Sequence record: OP795442
Reading direction: 5' to 3' (one strand)
DNA from: Escherichia phage A7_1
DNA length: 64,000 bases
Shown here: in pieces, positions 3,912 to 46,605 of the stretch
Layout: every line of letters begins with the position of its first letter
How positions within the stretch are numbered: the stretch's first letter is position 1
Notes under the pieces: model-generated
Database searches by the model: none
What the model was told of the DNA's origin: nothing
The model's input: the letters and a program-made list of their open reading frames with translations, nothing else
Program-made: the position numbers and the translations under genes

Positions 3912-4499
3912 TCAAGGACGTTTCGGTGGACTAACGACACCTTTTTTAGATAAAGGTAATTCGTCTGCATCTTTTCCACGAAGAGATTCTAGCCACTCAT
4001 CTAAAGACAGGGGTACTTTACCATCACCTTTGGACCATACAGATAAGCAATACAGATCGTATGCAGATGGACCTCGATCACCTTTGTCACCATTCAACCC
4101 TTTTAAACTATCCAGCCAATCCTTCTCATTTAGTGGGATAGCGCCAGGATCTTCTTTACGAAGAACTCTCAGGTATGTTTCATAAGCAGACTCTCCACGG
4201 GGACCAATTGGACCAGGTAAACCTTGCGGTCCCTTTGCATACTCAAGACACTTAGAATCTAAATATGCAGACTTTGAACCATCATTAACCACTGAAACTT
4301 TATACAATGACCAAGCCAACAGAACTATCCAACAAGCAAACAATGCAAGCGGGTAAGGGATCATTGAAGTAAAGAATGACAGGGCTAAAATTACAACCTT
4401 GTTCTTGTGATCACGACGGAAAGCGATGATCACAGGGGCTAACCAGATAGCAAAGATAACCCACGCAGATAAGATAAACAACCAACTAATGTATTCCAT
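3912..4499 (-). CDS. membrane protein, superinfection-immunity-like N-terminus plus two short collagen-like G-X-Y segments
   Basis: Two N-terminal TM helices around an FRRDHKNK motif; GPQGLPGPIGPRGES and GLNGDKGDRGPS each followed by SAY(E/D). Confidence 0.6.
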   Translation of the reverse strand: MEYISWLFILSAWVIFAIWLAPVIIAFRRDHKNKVVILALSFFTSMIPYPLALFACWIVLLAWSLYKVSVVNDGSKSAYLDSKCLEYAKGPQGLPGPIGPRGESAYETYLRVLRKEDPGAIPLNEKDWLDSLKGLNGDKGDRGPSAYDLYCLSVWSKGDGKVPLSLDEWLESLRGKDADELPLSKKGVVSPPKRP

Positions 4500-5305: not shown

Positions 5306-5372
5306 TTCATCACTCCTCTAATTAAAACTCTTACTCCCGATGTGAGGAGCCTTTCGGCCCCTCCCTTAAATA

Positions 5373-5981
5373 TCAATCACAACTGCTTGAAGAACTGCTA
5401 CTGCTACTATCCGAAGAATAACTATCGTAAGATGATGAGCTATCATACGAACTTGATCGACTTGAAGAACAGTAAGAACTTGAACTACTTGTACGATCTT
5501 CACTGGATGACATTACGGCAGCATACGTTGCCACACCACCTAAAGCTGCCACCTGAGGATCAACCTGGCTAGTTCCATATCCGTTTGGAGAGTCGCTCAT
5601 TTTACGTGGCGCTGCCCGACGTGCCTGATCAATATATTGTCGCTTTGCCTTCGGTGGTAATTTCTTACCTTGAGCATAAGACGGCAGTTCAACACCCTTC
5701 AGTTGTTCATCCAAAGGTTTCGGCGGCGTAGCCTGTGATTTTGGTCGTTCAACAGAGATATCAACAACCTTCATCGTCTTATCTTTGATGTTTAACCCAA
5801 CCAATACCTCATTTTCTTTTAATGGTTCTTCCAGATCGCGTGTTTCAACTGGACCGAATTTAACGCTTTCAGTTTCCTGACGCTGTTCGGCCTGCTTTGC
5901 AATATACTTGTCGATCGCCGCAGTTTCTACTTCCAGCGGAATAAACAGTGATTTTACCCAAGCAACAAACTTCTTGATCAT
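5373..5981 (-). CDS. hypothetical protein with Ser/Tyr/Asp low-complexity C-terminal tail
   Basis: 202 aa; last ~45 residues are about 70% Ser. Confidence 0.5.
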   Translation of the reverse strand: MIKKFVAWVKSLFIPLEVETAAIDKYIAKQAEQRQETESVKFGPVETRDLEEPLKENEVLVGLNIKDKTMKVVDISVERPKSQATPPKPLDEQLKGVELPSYAQGKKLPPKAKRQYIDQARRAAPRKMSDSPNGYGTSQVDPQVAALGGVATYAAVMSSSEDRTSSSSSYCSSSRSSSYDSSSSYDSYSSDSSSSSSSSSCD

Positions 5982-23922: not shown

Positions 23923-25281
23923 TTATTGATCCTTGAAGATACTGGGGAACTTCTCGTGATAGAAGTTTACAACATCTTGGTCAACAATGATATCTTTTAC
24001 TCGTAAGCGTTTCAAAAGGCGAAGACCTTCTACACTCGTGGCACGGGAGAGCATAACATATGCTTGACCAGGTGTGAAAGTACCAAAGCCGAGATCGATG
24101 TTTACCTTACCTAAAGTTAAACCTTGTGCCTTGTGACCAGTGATCGCATAGCCCAACTTGAATGGGTATTGAATGTATTCACCAATAGATTTATCAACAA
24201 GAACAGTCTTTTCAACCATCTTCTTGATCATCTTTTTAGTCCCGTCCGGCATATCAACCTCTTCCTCTTCAAGCATCATCTTTTTCTCAGGTACTTGAGC
24301 AACGTTGTTCCATGTTGCAGGACCAATTGGGACCATCTTGCCATCGATATCTACAACAACAAAGGTTTTTGCGATACGACGCACAATACCGACTGTACCA
24401 TTGACATAATCAGGAACTTTCTTCTTCTGATCATTGTCGTTAACAACGATCATTACTTTAAGACCTTCTTTGAGAAAGAGCTTTTCGTTAACTGGACGTT
24501 CAACAAACTCACCAGTAATACGAGCATTAAATTCATGCTGTTCAGCATTAATCTTTGCGTATTCTTTGTTGTTGATCTCTTCTGCCAGCTTGTTCGTGGT
24601 AGTTAAAGTTACTGCTCCATCAAGTGGACGACCAAAGCAACGCTGATTAAAGAAGTTAACAGCATCGGGGATGTTCTTCCCGATACGGATATTATTAAGG
24701 TGTTCTGCAAACACAGGATCACTTTGACGATGCACTTTGGGAAGATAGGCATAGGTCAAATTCAAGGATTCCCAACTTTCACAACCAAAAGGAATTTCCT
24801 TGCCATGTAGCTCACGGAACAGGGGAACTTCTTCTTTCTTAAGAACAGGCTTGATCTGGAAACCATCGCCAAACATGATGATCTGGAGTCCACCAAAAGG
24901 CTTATCGGATTTACGATGATGGCGAAGTTTCATATCGATTTCCTTCAGTTTGTCACTTCGAGTCATACCGATCTCATCAAACACGATACCATCCAGTGCA
25001 TCAGATGCCATAAGCATAGCTGCCTTTTTAGATTTTGCCTTATAATCCTCGGAAGTTGTGACACCAAAGGTTAAACCAAACGCCTTGTGAGCCGTAACAC
25101 CACGGATGTTTAATGATGCTACACCTGTAGGACCAACAAACAGAAAACTATCGGCAAAGAAGTCACGCAATGCAGCGATCATCATACTTTTACCACTACC
25201 ACCAGGTCCGGTGATAAAAACGTTTTCACCATTCATGATTGCCTGCATCGCTGCTTCGTTACCGATCACTGTCTTAGTCAT
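23923..25281 (-). CDS. SF1B helicase, Dda/RecD/Pif1-like
   Basis: 452 aa; Walker A ITGPGGSGKS; C-terminal AITGHKAQGLT (RecD-like motif). Confidence 0.85.
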   Translation of the reverse strand: MTKTVIGNEAAMQAIMNGENVFITGPGGSGKSMMIAALRDFFADSFLFVGPTGVASLNIRGVTAHKAFGLTFGVTTSEDYKAKSKKAAMLMASDALDGIVFDEIGMTRSDKLKEIDMKLRHHRKSDKPFGGLQIIMFGDGFQIKPVLKKEEVPLFRELHGKEIPFGCESWESLNLTYAYLPKVHRQSDPVFAEHLNNIRIGKNIPDAVNFFNQRCFGRPLDGAVTLTTTNKLAEEINNKEYAKINAEQHEFNARITGEFVERPVNEKLFLKEGLKVMIVVNDNDQKKKVPDYVNGTVGIVRRIAKTFVVVDIDGKMVPIGPATWNNVAQVPEKKMMLEEEEVDMPDGTKKMIKKMVEKTVLVDKSIGEYIQYPFKLGYAITGHKAQGLTLGKVNIDLGFGTFTPGQAYVMLSRATSVEGLRLLKRLRVKDIIVDQDVVNFYHEKFPSIFKDQ

Positions 25282-25492
25282 TATTTAGTTCCTCATATTC
25301 ATATGGGTAGAGTAGATATCCTTTGTTGTCTTTTAGTGCTACGGCTATAACACTCTCAAGGTAAAAATCATCATCATAGTGAATTTCTTCAATTACAAGA
25401 ATATCACCTTTCTTTGGATGGTCATCGCGATCACTGAAATCATTTAGTAGCTTTATTTTTACGTTTTTCATATAACATCTCCGCTGCCACAA
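25274..25492 (-). CDS. hypothetical small protein
   Basis: Track ORF, 72 aa; true start may be the internal MKNVKIKLL. Confidence 0.4.
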   Translation of the reverse strand: MWQRRCYMKNVKIKLLNDFSDRDDHPKKGDILVIEEIHYDDDFYLESVIAVALKDNKGYLLYPYEYEELNND

Positions 25493-25652
25493 GGGTTAAG
25501 ATCATTGCCATATACATTACAATAGAGGTCACACTGATTTGAATGAATAGTTCATCAGTAACATGATTGAAGTAAACATTCTTTACATATCGAACCCCTA
25601 TAAGCCAAAATGCCATCACCACAGCAAATGTTAGTATCATACGTTTTATCAT
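25440..25652 (-). CDS. small membrane protein (holin-like candidate)
   Basis: 70 aa, two hydrophobic helices, charged C-terminus; directly upstream of the cell-wall hydrolase gene. Confidence 0.45.
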   Translation of the reverse strand: MIKRMILTFAVVMAFWLIGVRYVKNVYFNHVTDELFIQISVTSIVMYMAMILTLVAAEMLYEKRKNKATK

Positions 25653-26164
25653 TTCTTCTTCTCCTCTTTGTCTTTATAAAAGATGTGATTTTCTATGGTT
25701 ACTGTTCTTTTTAGAAGTTTACGCCAAACGGGTTTAACCTTCTTCGTATGATAATACAGAGATCCATATGTCGGGTCAAACCTTTTGTACAAAATCTCGT
25801 TATTTTTTAGCTTATGTACGAATTTTGATATACTAAGAGCACCCTCCCAAGAATCTTTATCTGTTATATTATAGGAAGATTTGGTTAGTGTCCACGAGAA
25901 CTGAGAGGCTTGATACACAACACCCTTCATAGTGGTTGGGAACTTATCATGCTTCATACGATTCATAGTTACGAATGCAACAGCCATTTGACCATTGACC
26001 GTTTCTCCTCTCGCTTCCATATAAACATTGCAAGCTAAGGCATTAATAGAGTTATCCTTTTTAGTGCATTTGTGGATAACTTTCTGTGCTCTCTCTTTGG
26101 CATAAGTAACGCCTGGTGCCAGAGACAGAGTACAAATAAAACTATATAATACTAATTTCTTCAT
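25649..26164 (-). CDS. SleB-like cell-wall hydrolase with N-terminal signal peptide
   Basis: 171 aa; signal-like MKKLVLYSFICTLSLAPGVTYA; conserved NVYMEARGE...AVAFV-MNR core. Confidence 0.7.
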   Translation of the reverse strand: MKKLVLYSFICTLSLAPGVTYAKERAQKVIHKCTKKDNSINALACNVYMEARGETVNGQMAVAFVTMNRMKHDKFPTTMKGVVYQASQFSWTLTKSSYNITDKDSWEGALSISKFVHKLKNNEILYKRFDPTYGSLYYHTKKVKPVWRKLLKRTVTIENHIFYKDKEEKKK

Positions 26165-26210
26165 TTTCCCTCCAATTGAGGACCCAGCTTATCACTGGGT
26201 CGCTCTCTTG

Positions 26211-26597
26211 TCAACTACCTTCTGTATGCTTTTTAATTTGGTCAGCGATCCCTTTCCATAGGCCGTTAAGGAAAGGGTTGCTTGTGATTACCTCGCCTAA
26301 CCAGGGGCCGTACAGGCGATATACGTAGTCATCTGTGATCGCATAGATACTTCCATCCCGTACAGCCAGTCCACGCACAAGAGATGTTGTTACACGACGG
26401 CCTGCGAATCCAGTTTTTTGATATTCCACTTCTGTATTCTCAATATAACCGACCAAATTCACAAGGTTTTTTGTCCCATCAATTGTAAAACCACACTTAT
26501 TTTCAAGATCTTCTGAAATAGTGCTGATCCCTTCTAGTGAGAAGTTGCCACCGAACTTTAGGCCATACTTAGCTGCAAGTTTATCGTGCGCTGTCAT
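26211..26597 (-). CDS. hypothetical protein
   Basis: Track ORF, 128 aa. Confidence 0.5.
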   Translation of the reverse strand: MTAHDKLAAKYGLKFGGNFSLEGISTISEDLENKCGFTIDGTKNLVNLVGYIENTEVEYQKTGFAGRRVTTSLVRGLAVRDGSIYAITDDYVYRLYGPWLGEVITSNPFLNGLWKGIADQIKKHTEGS

Positions 26598-26788
26598 TTT
26601 ACACTTTCCTTGATCAGTTGCTCAAAAGTTTCAACATCCTGAGTGATATGTGCTGTACTTCCATCACGGAAGACAACAACGGTAGTTTCTTCACCAAAAT
26701 GATTACCTTCACGAAAGAGAAGAATCTCTTCTACACGTAGAGCAACTTTAAGACCACCCTCACCTGTCAAATTTGCTTTTACGAACAT
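26594..26788 (-). CDS. hypothetical protein
   Basis: Track ORF, 64 aa. Confidence 0.45.
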   Translation of the reverse strand: MFVKANLTGEGGLKVALRVEEILLFREGNHFGEETTVVVFRDGSTAHITQDVETFEQLIKESVK

Positions 26789-26979
26789 TATAAACCTCCC
26801 ATGCTACGAAGAATAACATCTTTCATACGAATAAGAATTTCATTCTTATCCACCTCAGGAAAAATTTCAACCAGTTTAATAAGTAAACTTCTTCCACTTT
26901 TATACTCACCCGATCTTGCAAGGTGTAGAACAGTTCTTGCAAACTCTAACTCGTCTAAAGGTACTTTTCCTTCAACCAT
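26788..26979 (-). CDS. hypothetical protein
   Basis: Track ORF, 63 aa. Confidence 0.45.
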   Translation of the reverse strand: MVEGKVPLDELEFARTVLHLARSGEYKSGRSLLIKLVEIFPEVDKNEILIRMKDVILRSMGGL

Positions 26980-27233
26980 TCCGCAGCCTCCTTCAAGTTG
27001 TCAAACACTTTATAAGCAACACCTGTATATTCTGAATCCCAATCGTCACTTGGGTCATAATCCTCGTTAATCTCTTCTACATCAACATGATACTTATTTT
27101 CGTAGTCCTTTTCAACAAGAATACGAAGATCATGATAAACAGATGCTTCAACTTGGTCTGCTATTTTATCAAAGTAATCTCGATCTGTCATCTTTATACC
27201 CCACAACGTTGGAGAAAAGCTTCGCAAATGCAC
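26955..27233 (-). CDS. hypothetical protein
   Basis: Track ORF, 92 aa. Confidence 0.45.
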   Translation of the reverse strand: MHLRSFSPTLWGIKMTDRDYFDKIADQVEASVYHDLRILVEKDYENKYHVDVEEINEDYDPSDDWDSEYTGVAYKVFDNLKEAAEWLKEKYL

Positions 27234-27445
27234 AAAAAATCTTCTTTTTCTACATTCTTGATATCCATACCGATCTCTTTAAAAAGTTTAGGAAGATCAA
27301 GAGCCTTCGCGTCCTTTTCTAACTTGAAATAGCCGTTCTTATCATACGGAATTTTTTGGAGGAATAGAACATCTGGATTATCAGAGCCTTTTGTTTTTGT
27401 TGCTAGATAATCATAAATATCTTCACGAGGTACTGGCTTCTTCAT
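27194..27445 (-). CDS. hypothetical protein
   Basis: Track ORF, 83 aa. Confidence 0.45.
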   Translation of the reverse strand: MKKPVPREDIYDYLATKTKGSDNPDVLFLQKIPYDKNGYFKLEKDAKALDLPKLFKEIGMDIKNVEKEDFLCICEAFLQRCGV

Positions 27446-27446
27446 A

Positions 27447-27890
27447 TTATTCTCCTGTCAAATTTAATTTGTCACCTTTTCGCATCTCAAGGAAGGCTTT
27501 GAGATCTCCAAACTTAGTTTCCGTAAACGCAGAACCTGCCGGAGCTTTGTTATAATCCCATGTTTCCTTTGCTTCGTCAATATCTCCCACACGAGATTCA
27601 ATTTTCTTTCTGAATTCGTAAACGGAATACTTTGAACGAATAACTTTCGGCGGTACGTAACGCATAATGCCTGCGTCGCTTGATCTCTTTGATAATGAAA
27701 CCTTTTGTTGATGCATTTTAACACATCTTAAAACGTACTCCTCGAATTCCTTTTTAAAAGCCAGGTGAATCAAGGATTCTGGTGCAGAGAAGTGAACCTT
27801 GCGATAAGACCCATCATCATCCATAAGGTAACACACTTCTGGTTTTCCTGCAAAAACTTCAACATCAAAACTTTCAATCTGGAACTTCAT
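27447..27890 (-). CDS. hypothetical protein
   Basis: Track ORF, 147 aa. Confidence 0.5.
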   Translation of the reverse strand: MKFQIESFDVEVFAGKPEVCYLMDDDGSYRKVHFSAPESLIHLAFKKEFEEYVLRCVKMHQQKVSLSKRSSDAGIMRYVPPKVIRSKYSVYEFRKKIESRVGDIDEAKETWDYNKAPAGSAFTETKFGDLKAFLEMRKGDKLNLTGE

Positions 27891-27934
27891 AAAGTAAAAC
27901 CCCCATCGGTTAGGATAGGGGTATATTACATTGG

Positions 27935-28129
27935 TTACTCTACAGAGTCAACCGTTTCAACAAAGATAATATCACCATATTTCAGCTTACGGCGGTTGTC
28001 ACCTTTGTGGGTGTGGTCCACAGGGTTAAATGATCCAATATCATTGGAATGTTTCCAGCCAGATTTAACAGAAAACTGCTTAACAACAGCAGCAAAATCT
28101 TCCGGCTTTAACTCAATCATATGCTCCAT
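27935..28129 (-). CDS. hypothetical protein
   Basis: Track ORF, 64 aa. Confidence 0.45.
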   Translation of the reverse strand: MEHMIELKPEDFAAVVKQFSVKSGWKHSNDIGSFNPVDHTHKGDNRRKLKYGDIIFVETVDSVE

Positions 28130-28216
28130 TACATACTCCTTTCATAAGAAATTTCTCTATAGGGGCTTCATAGAGTAAAACCCCTATTGATTAAGATAGA
28201 ACCTATTATCAGTTAT

Positions 28217-28606
28217 TTACTCGTCAACAACTTTCCAACTCCAAAGATAACCATCTTTAGGCATAGTGGAACCTTTAACAAATATCATTTCGTCATAAAG
28301 ATCATCTTCGTTCGGCAAATCTTCTAAAAGTTTAAACTCAACATTGTTATACTCATTATAGATGATTTGTGCACGGAGTTTCTTGCCTACCTTAATGGAG
28401 TTAGTTTCTGATCGAACACATTCAATAATGTATCCCTTTTCATAAGAAATTTCTTCACGAGATACCTTATAGACCTTGACCAACGCAGGAAATTCCTTTT
28501 GTATTTTCAAAGCTGTATGCTGCGCTTCTTGTTCACTATCATAACCCTTGAAGAATTTAAAAACTTCACCTTCCCACTTGATCCAGACTTCATATTCTTT
28601 TTCCAT
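28217..28606 (-). CDS. hypothetical protein
   Basis: Track ORF, 129 aa. Confidence 0.5.
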   Translation of the reverse strand: MEKEYEVWIKWEGEVFKFFKGYDSEQEAQHTALKIQKEFPALVKVYKVSREEISYEKGYIIECVRSETNSIKVGKKLRAQIIYNEYNNVEFKLLEDLPNEDDLYDEMIFVKGSTMPKDGYLWSWKVVDE

Positions 28607-28616
28607 GTATCACCTC

Positions 28617-28934
28617 TTAAGAAATAAGTTGGATTTTTGGACCTTTTTCTTTTTCTGCTTGACGCAGGCGTTCACGAACGTACAGTTCGATATCAGTTGG
28701 TCGCCACAATTCAACTATAACCACATCGAAACGGTTTTCGTGAGCACCAGGTTGTTTATTCATGTAGCTTGCCATCAGGTCTGCACTTTCTTGATCAGCA
28801 AATACAGCTTTTGCTACGATTGGCTTACCATCTTCAGTTTGTCCCATACTCATGCTCGGAATGTTGTGACCTGCATCATTATCACGAATAGCAAACACAA
28901 GAGTAGTTTCAGCATTTTTCAGAAAGTCAGTCAT
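28617..28934 (-). CDS. hypothetical protein
   Basis: Track ORF, 105 aa. Confidence 0.5.
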   Translation of the reverse strand: MTDFLKNAETTLVFAIRDNDAGHNIPSMSMGQTEDGKPIVAKAVFADQESADLMASYMNKQPGAHENRFDVVIVELWRPTDIELYVRERLRQAEKEKGPKIQLIS

Positions 28935-29154
28935 TAATAATCTCCACGTCAGAATTGATATCAGTTTTATAAAACAGTCCCAGAGTTTCTGCGACCCCTA
29001 TCTCTATGAAAACAGCATCCTCATACACAACTGCATCAGAGGTTGCGTATACTTTATTATAAATTGGCTGGCCTGTAAAGTCACAATCAACAATATATTT
29101 AAACTTTTGGCCTTTCTTTACATCACGGGCCTTGATCAGCTTAACATTAATCAT
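28927..29154 (-). CDS. hypothetical protein
   Basis: Track ORF, 75 aa. Confidence 0.45.
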   Translation of the reverse strand: MINVKLIKARDVKKGQKFKYIVDCDFTGQPIYNKVYATSDAVVYEDAVFIEIGVAETLGLFYKTDINSDVEIIND

Positions 29155-29842
29155 CGGTACTCCCTATTTGTAATGGTACAATACCTAAAGCTTCCAAACC
29201 TGCCTCCACGACCTTACGATTTACAGAAGCCTCAAACTCTGCTTGTGCTTTCGCCTTAACAACCTCGGAGTTTTCCTTAAACACGTTAATCGCATGTTGA
29301 GTGATATCCGGCAGCTTTGAATGAACACGAGTGATCTTATTCTTAAGTTCAGTCAATTCTTTCTTTGTTGCCTTACCTTTCTCAATAAGTTGCTGGACTT
29401 CAATTACGGCTTCCAGATGGTCCTTTAAAAGATCTTTTAAGTCTTTATCCACGTTCAAGCCGATCATGTCAGAACTGTTTTGTTGTCCCTCAATGCCAGG
29501 AACATATCCATCGCCCTTGATATATCTTAATGTGATTGGTACGCCTTGTCCACTATGGGATGCCACTAACTCTGCCCATTGGTAAGATGTTAATTCAATC
29601 TCAATGACACGAGAGTTTCGTGACGTATAATAAGACGGCAAACCATAAGAGATCTCCTGGTATGCGGTATCAATACGTAAACAAACACGTTGATTATGGG
29701 TCGTGTCTGATCCGAACATTTCCACATTCCCACCAGTTGGGTGAGTGATTGATGCCAACCCATAAGCTGGGTGTGTCTGGATTACACGCTCAAATACTCC
29801 AGCTTCAGATAATTTTACTTCGGGCTTCATTACGTTTCTCAT
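29147..29842 (-). CDS. hypothetical protein
   Basis: Track ORF, 231 aa, coiled-coil-like C-terminal half. Confidence 0.55.
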   Translation of the reverse strand: MRNVMKPEVKLSEAGVFERVIQTHPAYGLASITHPTGGNVEMFGSDTTHNQRVCLRIDTAYQEISYGLPSYYTSRNSRVIEIELTSYQWAELVASHSGQGVPITLRYIKGDGYVPGIEGQQNSSDMIGLNVDKDLKDLLKDHLEAVIEVQQLIEKGKATKKELTELKNKITRVHSKLPDITQHAINVFKENSEVVKAKAQAEFEASVNRKVVEAGLEALGIVPLQIGSTDD

Positions 29843-29850
29843 AAAATCCC

Positions 29851-30051
29851 CTATTTTATTTTTACAATGTATTTAGAAGTTCTTCGGATTCTTTGGGTCC
29901 TTGTCCAAGTTGGGTCAACATACTCTATTCCTGCCATACCCTTACTCGGGATGATTCTGGTGATAATCCCCTTAAATATAGTTTTACGATCGTCATAAGT
30001 AAAAGCTACTTTGTCACCAACTTTCATCTCTATACCCATTAAATCTTTCAA
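29851..30051 (-). CDS. hypothetical protein
   Basis: Track ORF, 66 aa. Confidence 0.45.
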   Translation of the reverse strand: MKDLMGIEMKVGDKVAFTYDDRKTIFKGIITRIIPSKGMAGIEYVDPTWTRTQRIRRTSKYIVKIK

Positions 30052-30055
30052 ATCA

Positions 30056-30280
30056 TCAACCCCGTCTTTCTTTCAGTTCCTGTAAGAACAACTCATCAGC
30101 AAGATTATTTAAACTATTTGCCAGATTTCGGGCTTGTTCACGAGTAACACGAATACCAACAGAATCACAACCCTCACGATCGCAGTAGTCAATTCCGATC
30201 AGGATTTTACCTTTTTCAGTTGAGGGTGTAATATTAATTTCTGCCTGATAATCTACGCCAATATCCTGGAATGTCATCAT
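30056..30280 (-). CDS. hypothetical protein
   Basis: Track ORF, 74 aa. Confidence 0.45.
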   Translation of the reverse strand: MMTFQDIGVDYQAEINITPSTEKGKILIGIDYCDREGCDSVGIRVTREQARNLANSLNNLADELFLQELKERRG

Positions 30281-30435
30281 TTTGTGTATACCTCTTGTAT
30301 TTCTGCGATTAATGTTTCAGAGGAACTGGCAATTTCTGCTCGGACTTCCTCTGCTTTTTCTTTATCTTCAAATAGGGTCGGATGAATTTGAGCATCCTCA
30401 CCACAATGAAGACACAGTATAGCATAATACTTCAT
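30277..30435 (-). CDS. small protein (about 51 aa, not in track)
   Basis: MKYYAILCLHCGEDAQIHPTLFEDKEKAEEV...; overlapping stop/start with both neighbours; approximate. Confidence 0.35.
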   Translation of the reverse strand: MKYYAILCLHCGEDAQIHPTLFEDKEKAEEVRAEIASSSETLIAEIQEVYTK

Positions 30436-30797
30436 CACTTATTACCTTTTTCTTCTTCATGCGGCTTAACAATAATCTCTTCAATAATCTCAGGATCAAT
30501 GTTTTTAGTATACATAAAAGTATAAAGCGCCGTTTTCAAAGCGGCACGTTTACCATAGTAATGATCTGCGATGCCATTCTGTTTTGATAGTTTATGAATC
30601 TCCACTATTTTGCTTTCAACTTCTTCGTTGGAGATCTCTATATACTCGACTGCTGACATGCGTTCAATAAATATTGCATTAAGACCGTATAACTTGGCAT
30701 CTCGCTCCACGTATTCTTTGAATCGCTGCCACTCTACCTCATCTTTGATAAGGTCTGCAATTTTAAAGATTACTGGGTGCTTACGTGATTTGGTCAT
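30435..30797 (-). CDS. hypothetical protein
   Basis: Track ORF, 120 aa. Confidence 0.5.
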   Translation of the reverse strand: MTKSRKHPVIFKIADLIKDEVEWQRFKEYVERDAKLYGLNAIFIERMSAVEYIEISNEEVESKIVEIHKLSKQNGIADHYYGKRAALKTALYTFMYTKNIDPEIIEEIIVKPHEEEKGNK

Positions 30798-30853
30798 TTA
30801 TTCTCTCCTCGTTTGTTTTGATAGGGTCATATTACACGACCCTTGATATGTTG

Positions 30854-31111
30854 TCAACTAAAAATTAAAGAAACAACGTGGTAAATTACTTGGGGAAAGA
30901 TAACTACGAAGTACAGATCAACAAATCCAGAGATAAAGTGATAAGCCTTCAGTTTTGTACGTTTACCTTTGTAAAAATCAGAGATGATTTTGAAATATTT
31001 ATAAAGATTCCTTAAAAGTGCAAAACCGATCAACCCCAATCCACTAAGAACCACAACAAAAAGTGAAAACTGGACGTCCGCACTAAAAACACCAACAATA
31101 AGATCTAACAT
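30854..31111 (-). CDS. small membrane protein
   Basis: 85 aa, three hydrophobic segments. Confidence 0.5.
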   Translation of the reverse strand: MLDLIVGVFSADVQFSLFVVVLSGLGLIGFALLRNLYKYFKIISDFYKGKRTKLKAYHFISGFVDLYFVVIFPQVIYHVVSLIFS

Positions 31112-31392
31112 TAAATTTCCTCCAAATCAGCTTCTACGACATAGATACCTGGTAAAACTCTATAAGCCCAGGTGTTAAAAGTACAAGAATACATAATTCC
31201 TTTTACCTTGTAAGTTTTATTTGCAAACTGGCTTACAGGGTCAGTGACTTTAACTACGGTGTCACTTGCAAACTTAGGCATACCGTGCTTTGAAATTGCT
31301 TCACGATCAACTTTGTAAACATCCCTCCCAAAGAACTTTTCTAGTGGACAAAGATTATTCTCAAAATCAGTACCCATAGTCAACATCTCCAT
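31111..31392 (-). CDS. hypothetical protein
   Basis: Track ORF, 93 aa. Confidence 0.45.
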   Translation of the reverse strand: MEMLTMGTDFENNLCPLEKFFGRDVYKVDREAISKHGMPKFASDTVVKVTDPVSQFANKTYKVKGIMYSCTFNTWAYRVLPGIYVVEADLEEI

Positions 31393-31633
31393 TAATTACC
31401 GAGGTGCTTTTGTTTGTCTTACCATTTGAAGTCTTGATATGAGTATCTGCATGAGGACAATACACCACATTCAGACTCATATCTCCTGGGTTAGCTTTGA
31501 GACGATAAATCTTACAACCTGCCTCTTTCATTTCTTGCGGTAAAATGTAATTAGTAGTCTTATCGACAACGCCCTTTTGATCACAACCGGAAATGAAACA
31601 TACCATAAAAATCGCAGCAATAATCTTTTTCAT
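31367..31633 (-). CDS. putative lipoprotein
   Basis: 88 aa; signal peptide with lipobox-like FISGC (MKKIIAAIFMVCFISGCDQ). Confidence 0.55.
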   Translation of the reverse strand: MKKIIAAIFMVCFISGCDQKGVVDKTTNYILPQEMKEAGCKIYRLKANPGDMSLNVVYCPHADTHIKTSNGKTNKSTSVINGDVDYGY

Positions 31634-31980
31634 TTTACCTCCATCATAAATACTTTAACTTTTCGTACCTCTAATCTTACTTTATTAGAGCCTTGAAGTC
31701 TATTTCTTTTTTCAATTGCGTCATTAATGTCGCCATAGAAGTAGTGATCCTTACCTATTGTTGGTATTCCATTGCCGCCTTGCATAGCCAGTGTATACAT
31801 TTCTTTTCCACCTTGCAACCCTTTTGATACTTTTTCTTCAAAATATTTATTGAATTGGGTTGGTGAAGTGTCAATTTCTACATCATCTTCCCATCCCATA
31901 ACTTTATCCCAAAAACGGTCAATCTTGTCAAGAACTTTGTTACTAATCTTTTTAATCTTCTTCAACATAATCTTCCCCAT
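31630..31980 (-). CDS. hypothetical protein
   Basis: Track ORF, 116 aa. Confidence 0.5.
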   Translation of the reverse strand: MGKIMLKKIKKISNKVLDKIDRFWDKVMGWEDDVEIDTSPTQFNKYFEEKVSKGLQGGKEMYTLAMQGGNGIPTIGKDHYFYGDINDAIEKRNRLQGSNKVRLEVRKVKVFMMEVK

Positions 31981-32440
31981 TATTTATTTGGATACCGAAA
32001 CGATTTTCGTTAGTGGAAAAGAAACCATTTTCCATGCGGCGAATCTCTTCTTTCATCACTTCCTGCATCGTTAATTTAAGGATTTCTTTGTTTAATTTTG
32101 GCTTAACTTCACGAAGCTTGTCAAGAAGTTTTTCCATTTCTTCTTTTACTTTTTCTTCCTCATTTTCTATCTCTAATTGGTCCATTGCATCTTTACAAAC
32201 ACAGCAATGACCTGTTACTCTTAAAATGTGATTTTGTATAGGTAGTGCTTTTCTACCGCAATACCCACAAAGAATAGAACCACCAGAGTTTCGAGCATCT
32301 ACTGTCAATGTAGGTTTAGCCCCTTCTGCTTGAGAATCCCAAGTCTTTTTACCCTGGTAATCATACATAAAGAATTCGTAGGATCTTTCATCAACGTGGT
32401 CTTCGAGCATATGTAAAGTTCGTGTATTGAAATGTTTCAT
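31952..32440 (-). CDS. hypothetical protein with zinc-ribbon-like Cys cluster
   Basis: 162 aa; CGYCG...CCVC; first gene of the leftward unit. Confidence 0.5.
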   Translation of the reverse strand: MKHFNTRTLHMLEDHVDERSYEFFMYDYQGKKTWDSQAEGAKPTLTVDARNSGGSILCGYCGRKALPIQNHILRVTGHCCVCKDAMDQLEIENEEEKVKEEMEKLLDKLREVKPKLNKEILKLTMQEVMKEEIRRMENGFFSTNENRFGIQINNGEDYVEED

Positions 32441-32560
32441 TTTTAACTCCTCGTCGTTTGTATGTGCTAACTATACGAGAACTTGAGGGGAAGATCAATA
32501 CTTGATTTGCATTTTATTTTCATTATACTGTGCACATCTAAAACGAGAAGGAGATAACAA
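32441..32560. promoter_or_regulatory. divergent promoter region
   Basis: Rightward TTGATT-17-TATACT plus AAGGAG SD before 32561; leftward TTGATC-17-TATAGT plus GAGGAG SD before 32440. Confidence 0.55.
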
Positions 32561-33124
32561 ATGAGTCAAGATAAAGAGTTAGCCATTGCGATATCCGTAG
32601 CTGCTTCTGCCCATGTTGACCAAGTAGATAAAGGGGGGAATATCTATATTCTTCATCCTTTGCAGGTGATGCAAACATTGCAGCAAAAGGGAAGGGGAGA
32701 TTTAATGGCAGCAGGAGTTTTGCATGATGTGATTGAAGATACTGAAATCACTATGGAACACCTCTTTAAAAAGGGGATTTCAGAAAGAACCTTAGTGATT
32801 GTCGATGCAGTGACAAAGAAACGTAAGCAATCTTCATCTGATTACCTAGAGGGGATTTTAGAGAGTGAGGGTGCTTGTCATGTTAAGCTTGCGGATCTTA
32901 AACACAACTTAGATATTCTGCGAACTTGTAGCACCACAGAAAAAGACTTGCAACGGGTCAGGAAGTATGTAACAATGCACTTGTTGATTACGGAGATGGT
33001 TGATTGGTATGAAAGTATCGGAAGGTATCTCGATTATTGTGATTCTTTTGCCTATTCTAGCTATCTCGACGAACGTAAAGAATTTGTTCAGAAACTTATT
33101 AAAAAATGGAAGGAGTTTAAATGA
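32561..33124 (+). CDS. HD-domain (p)ppGpp hydrolase, SpoT/Mesh1-like small alarmone hydrolase
   Basis: 187 aa; AHVDQVDKGGNIYILHPL, AAGVLHDVIEDTE, VIVDAVTK, KLADLKHNL match the RelA/SpoT hydrolase HD signature. Confidence 0.8.
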   Translation: MSQDKELAIAISVAASAHVDQVDKGGNIYILHPLQVMQTLQQKGRGDLMAAGVLHDVIEDTEITMEHLFKKGISERTLVIVDAVTKKRKQSSSDYLEGILESEGACHVKLADLKHNLDILRTCSTTEKDLQRVRKYVTMHLLITEMVDWYESIGRYLDYCDSFAYSSYLDERKEFVQKLIKKWKEFK

Positions 33125-33654
33125 AAAAGGTATTGAGTATTGAGCCGTTCACAACAACATACTTTGACGATTTGGAACGTCATGGTGATTATGGGGTACA
33201 AGACGCTGATGGTTGGAAAGAATTCCCTGAAGAAACAAAAGGTGACATTACAAAGCTCGGTTGTAAGATCAATGGATCTGAACCAAAAGGTGTTTACACC
33301 ATGTTTTCTTTCCTTGAAGCTATGAACCCAACGTACAAGGGAGATCGGCAATTTGGTTTTTCTTTTGCATCATTCCTTACTTGTAGCTGTGGTCATGGGG
33401 GTTGTGCAGGCTATCATGATAATGTGGTTATTCGACGTAAAAAGAATACCGTGATGGTCATGGGTAAAAAGGGAGATGGTTATGACGAAGGTGTTGTATT
33501 GACAGGTGAATCTGTTGTATACTTCGATAAAAAGCAGTGGGACGGTGTTCTAGAACACTACCTTAAACTCTTCAAAGAAAATCCTGATGGTGTTTTTGAA
33601 GATGCGGGTTTTATGTTTACTGGTCGTTGGGGGACTAAAAATTTTTCAAAATAA
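33121..33654 (+). CDS. hypothetical protein
   Basis: Track ORF, 177 aa; Cys/His cluster CSCGHGGCAGYH. Confidence 0.5.
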   Translation: MKKVLSIEPFTTTYFDDLERHGDYGVQDADGWKEFPEETKGDITKLGCKINGSEPKGVYTMFSFLEAMNPTYKGDRQFGFSFASFLTCSCGHGGCAGYHDNVVIRRKKNTVMVMGKKGDGYDEGVVLTGESVVYFDKKQWDGVLEHYLKLFKENPDGVFEDAGFMFTGRWGTKNFSK

Positions 33655-33724
33655 TTTAAAAACTTGTTGACTTAAGAAATAGAAAAGATATACTTATCAC
33701 ATCAAAAACAAGAGGAGATATAAA

Positions 33725-34954
33725 ATGCAAGCAACTTATCAACGTATGGACCAAACCATGTTCAAAAAACGTATCAGTGTTCGTGATATGGAATCACTGA
33801 TTCGCCTAGGAGCTTCCATCGGAAAGACCGTATTCTTTTTTGGTGGCGCTGGTCTTGGTAAGTCTGAAAAAGTAAAACAGATCGCTGATTCCATGTTCCC
33901 ACATCGTGTAGGTAATAACCTTTGTGATGTTCGTCTGTCGGATAAAGAGCCACAAGATATCGCAGGTATTCCGATTCCGATCTCTTATCCAGATCCGAAA
34001 ACTGGTAAAGAAGTCACTCGTACCGTATATGCAGTTCCAAACTTTTGGCCTACTGATCCTGATTGGGAAGGTATCGTGTTCTTGGATGAACTGCCAAATG
34101 CACCATTGGGCACTCAGCACTCTGCATATCAGGTTATTCTTGATCACGTTGCAGGTGAGCATAAGTTCCCGAAAGGTACTGTGTTTGTAGGTGCAGGTAA
34201 CCGTGATACTGATGGAGCAGGGACTACTTCTATGCCTGGCCCATTGGTTAACCGTATGATCATTGCAGAAGTTGATTATAATCTGGATGTGTGGATCGAA
34301 GACTATGCGATTCCGTTCCGTCTGCACCCGAACATTATTGGTTTCTTGAAGCAGTTTCCAGAGCATTTCTATACTGGTGACGTAGAAAACCGAAGTACTC
34401 CGGTTTATTCATCTCCTCGTCAATGGAAAACAGCATCTGACATTCTGTACAAGTATGATGCGGGTGAGATTAATGAATTTATCGCAGAGGTTGCTCTTGC
34501 AGGTACAGTTGGTGAAGGCCTGGAAGTACAGATCCTTGCTTATCATTTACGTGCTAAAGAACTTCCTCCGATTGAAGATATCTTTAGTGGTGCAGTTGAA
34601 GAACATAAACTTGATCGCAGTAAGAACGACCTTGTTTACGTCCTGGCACAAACTGGCCTTCGTCGCATGGAAGATGAGGTTATGGATAATGACATGACGG
34701 ATGATAAGTTCCTTGAACGTGCAGGTAACTTCCTTACGTTCATGTACAATAACTATTATGCAAACAACAAGGATACGATGATTGCTTTGATCTTGGGCGT
34801 GTTCCGTGGTCCAAACGATAAGCCATCTATCTTGACTGTTAACCCGAAACGTCAGAAAATGATTCCGCTTATGCGTAAGAGTTGCCCGACTGTTTCTGCC
34901 GCAGTTATGGAATACATGACTCGATATGGTCAACTGATTAAAGAATTCGAATAA
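33725..34954 (+). CDS. MoxR-like AAA+ ATPase
   Basis: 409 aa; Walker A GGAGLGKS, Walker B VFLDELPNA, sensor region VGAGNRD. Confidence 0.8.
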   Translation: MQATYQRMDQTMFKKRISVRDMESLIRLGASIGKTVFFFGGAGLGKSEKVKQIADSMFPHRVGNNLCDVRLSDKEPQDIAGIPIPISYPDPKTGKEVTRTVYAVPNFWPTDPDWEGIVFLDELPNAPLGTQHSAYQVILDHVAGEHKFPKGTVFVGAGNRDTDGAGTTSMPGPLVNRMIIAEVDYNLDVWIEDYAIPFRLHPNIIGFLKQFPEHFYTGDVENRSTPVYSSPRQWKTASDILYKYDAGEINEFIAEVALAGTVGEGLEVQILAYHLRAKELPPIEDIFSGAVEEHKLDRSKNDLVYVLAQTGLRRMEDEVMDNDMTDDKFLERAGNFLTFMYNNYYANNKDTMIALILGVFRGPNDKPSILTVNPKRQKMIPLMRKSCPTVSAAVMEYMTRYGQLIKEFE

Positions 34955-43825: not shown

Positions 43826-43984
43826 ATGACTAGCCAAAACACTAACATTGAAAAAATCAACATTACTAAAGAGCGTAAAGCATGGAATGAAACATTAAAT
43901 CTCAAAGGTAAGAAGCTGAATAAAACTAAACGCGATCGCAGTACAAAGCGGGCCTTTTGTGAATTTACAGCGGATCAAGAGTGA
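43826..43984 (+). CDS. small basic protein (about 52 aa, not in track)
   Basis: MTSQNTNIEKINITKERKAWNETLNLKGKK... behind CCAGGAGT SD; approximate. Confidence 0.35.
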   Translation: MTSQNTNIEKINITKERKAWNETLNLKGKKLNKTKRDRSTKRAFCEFTADQE

Positions 43985-44175
43985 TGATTAAAGTTATTGC
44001 ACTTACTGCTTTATTGTGTATACCATTTTTGGCGCACGGTACTAAGTTTTACGGTGCTAACTTGATAGATTGTAAAGCTCATATGCTGGACCATGAAACA
44101 GGCAACAAATTTCTTAAGCCTTTCCAGATCAATCCAGCGGCATTTAGTGACCGGTGTTTTGTATCAGGAAGGTAA
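43984..44175 (+). CDS. small protein with signal-peptide-like N-terminus
   Basis: Track ORF 43981..44175; MIKVIALTALLCIPFLAHG. Confidence 0.45.
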   Translation: MIKVIALTALLCIPFLAHGTKFYGANLIDCKAHMLDHETGNKFLKPFQINPAAFSDRCFVSGR

Positions 44176-44287
44176 AGCCAGTACGCTGATAATGCATTAC
44201 GATCCGACAACAAAGAAAGGTAGTCTATCAATCCAGGTTGGAGAGGTGGAAGAGTTTTCCGGTGAAATAGTCTGTAATTAATATCTT

Positions 44288-44319
44288 GAGGCCCGTCATT
44301 GTACGGGCCTTTTTCTTTT
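44288..44319 (+). terminator. rho-independent terminator
   Basis: aggcccgtcattgtacgggcct followed by T-run. Confidence 0.8.
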
Positions 44320-44343
44320 ATGAAAATAATTTTGAAAATGTTG

Positions 44344-44411
44344 TTGACAGTAAAATCGATTCTGTTAAGATGTATCACATCAGGACGGGGAACGAAGTAA
44401 ACACTCCCCGT
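44344..44411 (+). promoter_or_regulatory. promoter plus hairpin cassette with no downstream ORF
   Basis: TTGACA-16/17-TAAGAT then acgggga...tccccgt hairpin; next start codon is after a second cassette. Confidence 0.5.
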
Positions 44412-44470
44412 TAAGTAGTCCAGGAGTAAGACATACGAAAAACTCCCCTGATAAAAAGATTTAAAAGTGG

Positions 44471-44527
44471 TTGACACAAAATTAAAAACTGTTAAGATGT
44501 ATCACATACGGCGGCAATAGTGCCGCC
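44471..44527 (+). promoter_or_regulatory. promoter plus 5' GC hairpin cassette
   Basis: TTGACA-16-TAAGAT then ggcggca-atag-tgccgcc. Confidence 0.6.
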
Positions 44528-44547
44528 TCCAACAAAGAGAAATTATC

Positions 44548-44799
44548 ATGGCTAACAAAACTAAAACCACTAAAACTTATAACGGTCACAAAAACAAAAA
44601 TCATTGGAACGTTTCTCTATGGCTTAACAATGATTCATCACTTTACCAGCTGGCGAAAGAATTTATTAACGCTAACACTAATCGTAATGATGCGGCGCGG
44701 GATATGATGATTTTTCTGGAACAAACTGGACAATATAAAACTCCAGACGGTTTCAAGTACAGCACTACGGCGATCCGTGCTGCAATGGTTGGAATGTAA
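44548..44799 (+). CDS. hypothetical protein (paralogue of 46366..46605)
   Basis: 83 aa; shares HWNVSLW and C-terminal TPDGFKYSTTAIRAAMVGM. Confidence 0.55.
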   Translation: MANKTKTTKTYNGHKNKNHWNVSLWLNNDSSLYQLAKEFINANTNRNDAARDMMIFLEQTGQYKTPDGFKYSTTAIRAAMVGM

Positions 44800-44817: not shown

Positions 44818-44836
44818 TGGCGGGATTAGTTCCCGC
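44818..44836 (+). promoter_or_regulatory. 5' leader GC hairpin
   Basis: ggcggga-ttagt-tcccgcc. Confidence 0.5.
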
Positions 44837-44855
44837 CTTTGCGGAGAAATATCTA

Positions 44856-45541: not shown

Positions 45542-45685
45542 ATGAAAACTTGTCAGTGTGGTAAAAAGTCTATTGCTGGTCTGCGTCGCGGTGTTGCTTT
45601 ATGCCAGTATCATTACAATAGTCAAGTATGGGGTAAAACGTGGGCTGACCAGGTTGAAGCAGCAAAGAAAGCAAAAAGTAATTGA
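45542..45685 (+). CDS. small Cys-rich protein (about 47 aa, not in track)
   Basis: MKTCQCGKKSIAGLRRGVALCQYHYNSQVW... behind AAGGA SD; the antisense track ORF 45570..45887 is rejected; approximate. Confidence 0.4.
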   Translation: MKTCQCGKKSIAGLRRGVALCQYHYNSQVWGKTWADQVEAAKKAKSN

Positions 45686-46365: not shown

Positions 46366-46605
46366 ATGGCTAAATCTAAAACTTTCAACGATCACAAAAA
46401 CAAAACTCATTGGAATGTTTCCTTGTGGATTAATAATGGTGAAGCACTGTATCGGCTTGCTCAAAATTGCATTGCACAAAGTAAAACTAAAGATATTGCT
46501 GCGGAATGTATGTACCGCAGATTAAAAGCGAACGGCACTACAACAACGCCGGACGGATTTAAGTATAGCACCACTGCGATCCGTGCCGCGATGGTTGGAA
46601 TGTAA
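46366..46605 (+). CDS. hypothetical protein (paralogue of 44548..44799)
   Basis: 79 aa; HWNVSLW and C-terminal TPDGFKYSTTAIRAAMVGM shared. Confidence 0.55.
   Translation: MAKSKTFNDHKNKTHWNVSLWINNGEALYRLAQNCIAQSKTKDIAAECMYRRLKANGTTTTPDGFKYSTTAIRAAMVGM

Follow-up and report, generated by a model that had tools for sequence, protein, structure and literature searches.

What does a promoter transcribe when no gene lies behind it? The question is raised by the early region of Escherichia phage A7_1 (sequence record OP795442), of which a stretch of 64,000 nt, here called the window, was analyzed. Two similar predicted promoters, denoted P1 and P2, follow one another on the plus strand, and only P2 is followed by an evident gene. 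A preliminary description of the locus proposed that the first had lost its gene or gives rise to a short non-coding transcript. The answer favored here, and judged probable, is that P1 is not an orphan: its predicted product would be a conserved, structured, non-coding RNA module that is homologous to the spacer between the A1 and A2 promoters of phage T7, with a cis-acting leader as the preferred role.

The locus is that of a phage like Escherichia phage A5-4 (Vequintavirinae, 145 kb; 99.7% identity to A5-4) and is set in a plus-strand series of small early genes, every one annotated as hypothetical. P1 and P2 each match the promoter consensus at 10 of 12 positions and carry an extended -10 TG (consensus scan). 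Both are held within a 45-nt direct repeat (44336-44380 and 44463-44507) of 80% identity and 127-nt spacing, the final 19 nt of which, CTGTTAAGATGTATCACAT, are identical in the two copies. Within a region of 281 nt, such a repeat is far beyond chance. Transcription from P1 would start at A44379, by analogy with T7 A1, and transcription from P2 at A44506, which corresponds in position to T7 A2. A GC-rich hairpin follows each promoter. The preliminary description was thus correct in seeing two near-identical promoter-hairpin cassettes, which lie 127 bp apart, and also in assigning a Shine-Dalgarno (SD) sequence and ATG only to the second. An SD-like AAGAGA and an ATG (44548) follow P2 only, and the list of open reading frames (ORFs) holds none opened by ATG, GTG, or TTG between P1 and P2. 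The gene at 44548-44799 is served by P2 and probably also by read-through from P1. A terminator scan found no terminator-like site between P1 (44371) and the ATG (44548), the nearest being upstream of P1 at 44288-44311; P1 transcripts therefore probably continue through P2. The classical mark of a small RNA (sRNA) gene, an intrinsic terminator that fixes the 3′ end, is absent from this interval.

The sequence that follows P1 is an element of about 74 nt with a predicted folding energy of -21.6 kcal/mol (z = -3.2 relative to shuffles). Its order of modules is a 5′ box AUCAGGACGGGGAAC, a first hairpin (HP1), a single-stranded UAAGUAGNC box, and a second hairpin (HP2) with a 16-nt loop of the form UAAGNC-N4-GAAAAA (coordinates are collected in Table 1). 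The linker at 44412-44420, single-stranded between the two hairpins, reads UAAGUAGUC. The UAAGUAGNC box is present in all family members, an invariance that is partly forced, as the box belonged to the search pattern. Throughout the family, HP2 has a stem of 4-5 bp and a loop of 16-17 nt, UAAGNC-N4-GAAAA(A/C/U), which the window hairpin at 44423-44446 fits. By eye, the element lacks the defining nucleotides of a CRISPR-repeat mimic, a tRNA-like structure, a hammerhead, a K-turn, a tetraloop-receptor, and a sarcin-ricin motif. A purine-rich internal loop may form inside the HP2 loop. A pairing with 89% complementarity can be drawn between 44446-44454 (CCCUGAUAA, at the closing helix's 3′ arm) and the gp69 start region at 44543-44551 (UUAUCAUGG); a similar AUCAUGG occurs in EmilieFrey and not in other relatives, and the pairing is probably due to chance.

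The element is widespread among large coliphages. The arrangement of P1, a non-coding stretch, and P2 is kept in the five closest relatives, including A73, W70, UPEC06, and LTH01. A sensitive blastn search with 44330-44475 matched 45 phage records, mostly over window positions 44370-44456 alone, at 86-92% identity and without any annotated feature beneath the match. The records include jumbo phages of Asteriusvirus (the 121Q/PBECO4 group, with two to four places per record, some within terminal repeats) and phi92-like phages of Justusliebigvirus. In the aligned relatives the common order is a promoter, the element, a second promoter at once, and then differing genes, for which at least five different N-termini were counted. 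Copies are divided into type A and type B, the latter a shorter variant without HP1 that is found in UPEC06, LTH01, and, at a third locus, jumbo phages (57 records). The second promoter of the 121Q type B copy reaches a match of only 9 of 12. Neither the window version nor the T7 version described below had a blastn match in 5,426 complete E. coli genomes or in the PLSDB plasmids, and a scan of species-representative genomes returned chance hits only, in unrelated metagenome-assembled genomes. The element is confined to virulent phages and is absent from the searched E. coli chromosomes and plasmids.

The link to T7 came from a pattern composed of the boxes common to types A and B, TAAGTAG-N8-TAAGNC-N4-GAAAAMC, which was scanned against IMG/VR, metagenomes, and species genomes. 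Matches consisted of the jumbo-phage copies, chance hits, and contigs of 37-41 kb in which the match lay between recognizable T7 A1 and A2 promoters. An earlier and stricter IMG/VR pattern had yielded two 121Q copies and chance hits only, and relaxation to the loop and linker boxes led to the T7-like members. Chance hits were discarded by their context (L012, L015-L017, L026, L030, L033-L036, L039-L042, L048, L062, and L072 in our numbering of loci). In T7 itself (NC_001604) the motif is at about nt 532-594 with one extra A, as CCGGGGUCAACCGG-A-UAAGUAGACAG-CCUG-AUAAGUCGCACGAAAAA-CAGG, and sits between the annotated starts of A1 (498) and A2 (626). No feature is annotated on this stretch in NC_001604, nor any gene between A1 and A2. 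A blastn search with the 63-nt T7 stretch matched 485 phage records, whose hosts are Escherichia, Klebsiella, Salmonella, Yersinia, Enterobacter, Citrobacter, Serratia, Pantoea, and Providencia. Where features are annotated beneath these matches, they belong for the most part to the next promoter (its -35 signal or the promoter feature itself), along with a few hypothetical-protein calls. The HP2 loop of the window is identical to that of one T7-like contig (L024), and the type B loop to that of another (L023).

The correspondence extends to the surrounding layout. The A1 and A2 starts of T7 are separated by 128 bp and those of P1 and P2 by 127 bp; A2, an annotated E. coli promoter, has the same TAAGAT -10 hexamer as P1 and P2; and the first transcribed bases in T7, AUCGAGAGGGACACGG, are similar to the AUCAGGACGGGGAAC of the window. 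In both phages a strong promoter for the host polymerase is followed by HP1, the UAAGUAGNC box, HP2 with its UAAGNC-N4-GAAAAA loop, and a second strong promoter. The two versions differ in detail. In T7-like phages HP1 is preceded by an additional 5′ hairpin and is itself short, 4-6 bp with the loop GGUCAA, and A2 abuts a CCUG/CAGG HP2, whereas the window has an HP1 of 7 bp with a 13-nt loop, a closing helix from +1, a GGAG/CUCC HP2, and 24 nt between HP2 and P2. T7 continues with A3, boxA, and an RNase III site, none of which was found in the window. The module is homologous to the transcribed A1-A2 spacer of T7, with P1 equivalent to A1 and P2 to A2.

Only 22 T7-like sequences (alignment A3), and none of the window type, went into a covariance model, R1. 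It finds the window element at 44388-44453 with 24.6 bits as its sole match in the window; the E-values, 0.002 over 195 kb and 0.0039 over 379 kb, are rough, owing to a short calibration. R1 also detects every type A and type B copy. When 40 distinct sequences are aligned, 93% of the cells form standard pairs, compared with 71% for column shuffles and 24-47% for slid partners, and seven of the nine pairs change on both sides. HP2 is paired in 97.9% of cases through stems of the types CCUG/CAGG, CCAG/CUGG, CUUG/CAAG, CCUG/CGGG, and GGAG/CUCC, and compensatory changes occur at 3 of its 4-5 pairs across the family. RNAalifold, which is independent of the proposed structure, recovers HP2, with three of its four pairs compensatory. 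HP1 was scored directly because the model alignment is unreliable there. A stem of at least 4 bp that ends no more than 1 nt from UAAGUAG occurs in 30 of 39 distinct upstream sequences as against 6.8% of shuffles, and 12 different stem sequences, all adjoining UAAGUAG, are found. The nine exceptions are the type B copies and two contigs, L058 and L063. Pairing in both hairpins is thus kept through compensatory change.

L058 and L063 (about 5361-5470 and 4086-4230, respectively), both on IMG/VR contigs roughly 6 kb long, belong to the family but are divergent, with a CCAG/CUGG HP2 and the loop UAAGGCAUA(C/U)GAAAAU. A boxA-like sequence follows the element within about 17-25 nt in each, CGCTCTTTAACAATCTGG in L063 and ATGCTCTTTAAAAAC in L058.

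The pairing changes the meaning of the SD-like CCAGGAGU that is present downstream of P1. The preliminary description took this to be an SD-like sequence with no start codon. The start codon is indeed lacking, but the motif is the 5′ arm of HP2: AGGAG is not conserved and gives way in relatives to CCUG, CCAG, or CUUG, each with the matching change in the 3′ arm. The position of the would-be start codon reads ATA, ACA, ATG, ACG, or AAG across members, and members differ in length by indels, some of 1 nt, whose sizes are not multiples of three. A micro-ORF translated from a non-canonical start can be drawn in the window, where AGGAGU, 5 nt, and ATA open a frame of 13 codons, and most type A copies have an 8-codon frame (ATA CGA AAA ACU CCC CUG AUA AAA UAG). 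EmilieFrey and muut, however, have ACA as the putative start; type B and T7-like members lack the SD-like sequence but keep the pairing; TAAGTAG puts stops in two frames; and indels shift the frame between members. On the minus strand, a 132-aa antisense ORF (44079-44477) has no PHROG match and overlaps gp68 and the terminator. A micro-ORF is scarcely credible here, and the conserved small ORF with a non-canonical start that the preliminary description named as the contrary case is not what the relatives contain. Small hypothetical coding sequences (CDSs) are nevertheless called across the element in public records, in UPEC06 (QUL77394; L004 2420-2533) and, on the minus strand, in BAU.Micro_ELP-22 (ELP22_0051; L009 2006-2125) and SD-6_S16 (WPK19117; L010 2041-2133). 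Since the conservation of the element is of the RNA type, these calls are probably spurious.

The degree of conservation bears on whether the region is the scar of a lost gene. By that account, P1 once drove a small gene that was deleted, and the neutral spacer left behind is carried passively in cassette recombination. The sequence invites such a reading, as a hairpin, about 10 nt, AGGAG, 5 nt, and ATA mimic a cassette with a decayed ATG, and one 121Q type B copy has an ATG at this place that opens a 14-codon ORF. Cassette gain and loss at promoters is also evident at a syntenic site in phi92-like phages and is documented for cassettes of T4-like phages (PMC2839356). Against it, the approximately 74 nt recur in three other phage lineages, and the same element stands before at least five unrelated genes in four lineages. 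Compared with its counterparts in jumbo or phi92-like phages, the window element shows 88-93% identity (67-69 of 74-76 positions), a range that also covers other Vequintavirinae, with the differences mostly in the HP1 loop. Eight shared neighboring genes have identities of 84%, 90%, and 70% at codon positions 1, 2, and 3 and of 65% at four-fold sites. By this measure, the element is about as conserved as second codon positions and more constrained than the synonymous sites of its neighbors, which argues against a neutral scar. The compensatory helices, the exchange of AGGAG for other paired sequences, the variable start position and frame-breaking lengths, and the placement of the core between A1 and A2 in T7-like phages, with no gene annotated there in T7, all point the same way. 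The idea of a cassette whose gene was lost is largely refuted and is very improbable.

The syntenic site in phi92-like phages shows how the element is distributed. In ZYD, JLBYU50, and inny, P1 drives an ordinary cassette of hairpin, SD, and gene, while in EmilieFrey and muut it drives the element, P2, and a gene. P1 is the same in both arrangements, including the first ~15 transcribed nt. As either a gene cassette or the element can stand behind the same P1 at a syntenic site, the element behaves as an exchangeable cassette. The module may move between genomes as the neighboring gene cassettes do, by recombination in the flanking promoter and 5′-hairpin sequences. This resembles the promoter-early stem-loop (PeSL) cassettes of T4-like phages (Arbiol et al. 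2010, PMC2839356; Comeau et al. 2014, PMC4122927), for which there is comparative evidence of genes swapped at the motifs. In a PeSL, however, the stem-loop is a terminator ahead of the promoter and the cassette always serves an ORF, whereas the hairpins of the window follow the promoter in the 5′ untranslated region (UTR). A terminator precedes P1 (44288-44311) and none lies upstream of P2. The other mark of PeSLs, a cassette immediately upstream of a small ORF in the hyperplastic region of T4-like phages, is absent, as no ORF follows P1 and the phage belongs to Vequintavirinae.

Conservation could instead reside in the DNA, either as an upstream region of P2 (a UP element or factor site) or as a recombination hotspot for cassettes. 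The element is almost always just upstream of a second promoter, though not in L063, and breakpoints between phages fall at its edges. From about -47 to -38 of A2, T7-like phages carry GAAAAACAGG, where a proximal UP subsite (consensus AAAAAARNR) would be expected. The distance from HP2 to the next -35 is, however, variable. It measures 2 nt in T7 and 24 nt in the window, while most type A copies have about 14 nt and L024, L038, and L049 have 25-55 nt. L063 has the element in a 5′ UTR without any strong promoter between it and the gene. Compensatory changes that preserve pairing are unexpected for a protein-binding site in duplex DNA, and the element is always co-oriented with, and near the start of, a strong upstream promoter. 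A role confined to DNA is unlikely.

If the module works as RNA, it may do so within the transcript or apart from it. In the preferred account, host RNA polymerase would start at P1, transcribe the element, and continue through P2 into gp69, just as T7 A1 transcripts read through A2 and A3; transcripts from P1 would then bear the module at their 5′ end, and those from P2 would be without it. The element falls within about the first hundred nt transcribed from a strong early promoter of the host polymerase. The loop and linker boxes may be recognized by a host factor rather than by a phage protein, because the conserved boxes occur in phages that appear to share little else. The module would act in cis as an early-leader element that alters the fate of the transcript or polymerase, such as processivity, protection from Rho, or RNA stability. 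Alternatively, it could be released by processing as an abundant, very early decoy RNA. The two are close to evenly matched, with a slight lean toward the cis-acting leader. A second promoter straight after the element fits a processed, trans-acting RNA somewhat better, and the lack of a 3′-end signal together with the layouts of L063 and the 121Q type B copy fits the leader.

A fully stand-alone, trans-acting sRNA is a related explanation. P1 would yield an RNA of ~75-90 nt, with a 3′ end set by processing or by polymerase collision at P2, that would serve very early in infection, for example as a decoy for a host nuclease, chaperone, or defense sensor. The compact, self-contained fold from +1 that is closed by AUCAGG/CCUGAU accords with this, as does a strong promoter of its own with another promoter next, which resembles a cassette whose “gene” is RNA. 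The multiple places in jumbo phages, some in terminal repeats, and the restriction to virulent phages may be counted in its favor. The A1 leader of T7 is set free as a discrete “initiator” RNA when RNase III cuts at R0.3, which is also consistent with an sRNA. Opposed to these are the lack of an intrinsic terminator or obvious processing site after the element, the continuation of the T7 A1 leader for about 390 nt, and the lack of complementarity to host sequence by blastn. The stand-alone sRNA is a possible explanation, though a doubtful one. The short non-coding transcript of the preliminary description is supported in the main, in that the stretch after P1 is conserved, structured, and non-coding; with no terminator present, the module probably forms the 5′ portion of a longer transcript that reads through.

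Comparison with known RNAs places the module in a familiar kind without giving it a name. A search of the whole window with Rfam (4227 covariance models) gave no match at the gathering score, nothing relevant at E <= 10 on 44300-44560, and nothing at E <= 1 on the T7 leader; a tRNA/tmRNA scan found nothing. The put RNAs of phage HK022 are cis-acting antiterminator RNAs that act on downstream terminators. Like the module, they lie close to the promoter, comprise two stem-loops in about 70 nt, and belong to a phage early transcript that the host polymerase makes; they differ in that no terminator requirement is evident for the window element. Membership in a put-like family was rejected, as R1 has no match at E <= 1 in HK022 nt 24000-34000 (L044); put is unannotated in that record, and the span is taken to include it because of where gene O lies. 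By analogy, a put-type mechanism is the kind considered most plausible.

The antitermination sites of lambda (nut, boxA-boxB) and of rrn leaders (boxB-boxA-boxC) offer a second comparison, for in them too an early or leader transcript that starts from tandem promoters contains a hairpin with GAAAA in its loop. The HP2 loop, however, is 16 nt rather than five. No boxA (GCUCUUUAACAA or CGCUCUUA, with two or fewer mismatches) is near the element in the unit at 44.3-48.0 kb, nor near the element in the other myoviruses, and we know of no N-like protein in these phages. L063 has CGCUCUUUAACAA about 17 nt past HP2; this is the boxA that also occurs further down the T7 leader. The 5′-terminal stabilizer hairpins of bacterial and phage mRNAs (ompA type) resemble the module in having a structure at or near +1, as do the tight hairpins after other early promoters of the window. 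Such stabilizers need only a stem, whereas the loop and linker sequences of the element are conserved across phage families, pointing to specific recognition. The kind is known, namely promoter-proximal structured leader RNAs of phage early operons, and this particular motif is unnamed. No description of the element, in the window or in the T7 A1/A2 leader, was found in the literature searched, in which the PeSL papers alone were relevant, much of the older T7 literature being outside that search.

Several points weigh against the interpretation as a conserved leader RNA. P1 and P2 are consensus predictions, and the start site and the read-through are likewise putative. Because alignment A4 was fitted to the model and contains related sequences, its counts do not represent independent events. 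Patterns of the window family served to find the T7-like members, which makes the invariance of TAAGTAG, TAAG, and GAAAA partly one of construction. HP1 is not universal, being absent from the type B copies. The closing helix is a feature of the minimum free energy (MFE) fold, and the type A copies hardly vary there. The comparison of constraint assumes an equal divergence time for the element and its neighbors, which is uncertain in mosaic genomes. P2 just downstream would yield transcripts without the element, which is awkward for a requirement in cis; a stand-alone RNA sits more easily with P2, yet no terminator delimits one. Finally, the A-tract GAAAAAC of T7-like phages falls where a proximal UP subsite of A2 would be expected, and part of the conservation could act at the level of DNA.

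Extended to the whole family, the proposal is of an as yet unnamed early-leader RNA, shared by T7-like podoviruses (485 records) and three myovirus lineages including jumbo phages, to which a host factor binds and which acts on the polymerase or transcript or as a decoy. This wider statement is tentative, standing a little short of an even chance. If true, the element would be an RNA of general use in host takeover, overlooked so far in T7, where the A1 leader is a standard transcription template and the element is unannotated in the records examined. If a host factor binds, very different phages would share a strategy at the level of RNA in the first seconds of infection, which is directly testable in T7. 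Phage early regions are commonly treated as a succession of small ORFs, with their non-coding parts ignored; here a non-coding module is under selection and is passed among virulent phages of enterobacteria that belong to four very different groups. Early-region promoters of phages that look like “orphans” may be markers of RNA genes. The covariance model lets annotators find the element, and spurious small CDS calls over it can be flagged.

Table 1. Features predicted at the P1-P2 locus; coordinates are window positions.
Feature	Coordinates	Strand	Details
Intrinsic terminator of upstream unit	44288-44311	+	GAGGCCCGT..ACGGGCCTT then T run; 33 nt before the P1 -35; terminator scan and inverted repeat
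P1, predicted sigma-70-type promoter	44344-44371	+	-35 TTGACA 44344-44349; 16-nt spacer; TG 44363-64; -10 TAAGAT 44366-44371
Conserved non-coding element, ~74 nt	44379-44452	+	Three-way junction in MFE fold; without start codon or ORF
Closing helix, 5′ arm	44379-44384	+	AUCAGG; from predicted +1; MFE fold
HP1	44385-44411	+	Stem ACGGGGA/UCCCCGU; 13-nt loop; abuts UAAGUAG box directly
Linker box	44412-44422	+	UAAGUAGUCCA; family consensus UAAGUAGNC
HP2	44423-44446	+	Stem GGAG/CUCC; 16-nt loop UAAGACAUACGAAAAA; SD-like AGGAG of the preliminary description is the 5′ arm
Closing helix, 3′ arm	44447-44452	+	CCUGAU; MFE fold
P2, predicted sigma-70-type promoter	44471-44498	+	TTGACA 44471-44476; 16-nt spacer; TG; TAAGAT 44493-44498
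5′-UTR hairpin of P2 cassette, tight, ordinary	44510-44527	+	GGCGGCA AUAG UGCCGCC; type common to ~12 early promoters in window
gp69, 83-aa early ORF downstream of P2	44548-44799	+	phrog_871, E = 1e-29; A54_69 in phage A5-4

The cassette of P2 is one of many. About 12 plus-strand early promoters between ~44340 and 56400 of the window follow the same plan, TTGACA - N16-17 - TAnnAT - (G)TATCACGTAGGGCGGCAA..., then a tight GC-rich hairpin that begins 2-5 nt past the predicted start, an SD, and an ATG; examples are at 45682, 47051, 51514, 52079, 53550, 54049, 54768, 55070, and 56326. With so many promoters followed by a 5′ hairpin, SD, and ATG, the notion of a cassette is sound. This family of early-promoter cassettes is analogous to PeSLs, with the hairpin downstream of the promoter instead. 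Between gp69 and gp70, at 44818-44845, is a hairpin without a promoter, GGCGGGA-UUAG-UUCCCGCC followed by UUUGCGG, which could be a weak attenuator or an element for RNA stability or processing within the transcription unit.

The genes on either side of the locus have their own peculiarities. The terminator at 44288-44311 is kept in A5-4, A73, W70, UPEC06, and LTH01. Upstream of it, the homologue of A5-4 gp68 (98 aa, phrog_31669) is broken into overlapping ORFs at 43981-44175 and 44093-44281 by a 1-nt insertion, an extra C near 44153-44154 (GTGACCGGTG compared with GTGA-CGGTG in A5-4 and A73); the split gene is either a frameshifted pseudogene or a sequencing error. Downstream, gp69 and gp75 (46366-46605) are paralogues, both of phrog_871, with the common N-terminus MA(N/K)..HKNK(N/T)HWNVSLW.NN. 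Asteriusvirus, Justusliebigvirus, and ~150-kb myoviruses carry homologues with a nucleotide identity of 72-88%, and much of the early region appears to have been exchanged between phage families.

Jumbo phage 121Q (L018, NC_025447) contains a second repeated non-coding unit. It has a promoter-like TTGACT within a hairpin (GGGATTGACTCCGGTCAGTCCC) and continues with TTTGCTATTATAT and a conserved ACTAGCCCACAGGGTGCA stretch. Four copies lie in intergenic gaps after locus positions 19916, 23601, 26899, and 28819, one of them directly upstream of a type A element. A 2-kb stretch of the early region, nt 135194-137161 of 121Q (L018 10195-12162), is without an annotated gene. In the 121Q group, AGTACT palindromes (AGTACTGAAAACTATTTTTAAAAAGTACTTGC) flank the early promoters, for example at L018 13770-13800 and 23730-23770, and the AGTACT motif recurs so as to overlap the UP-element and -35 region.

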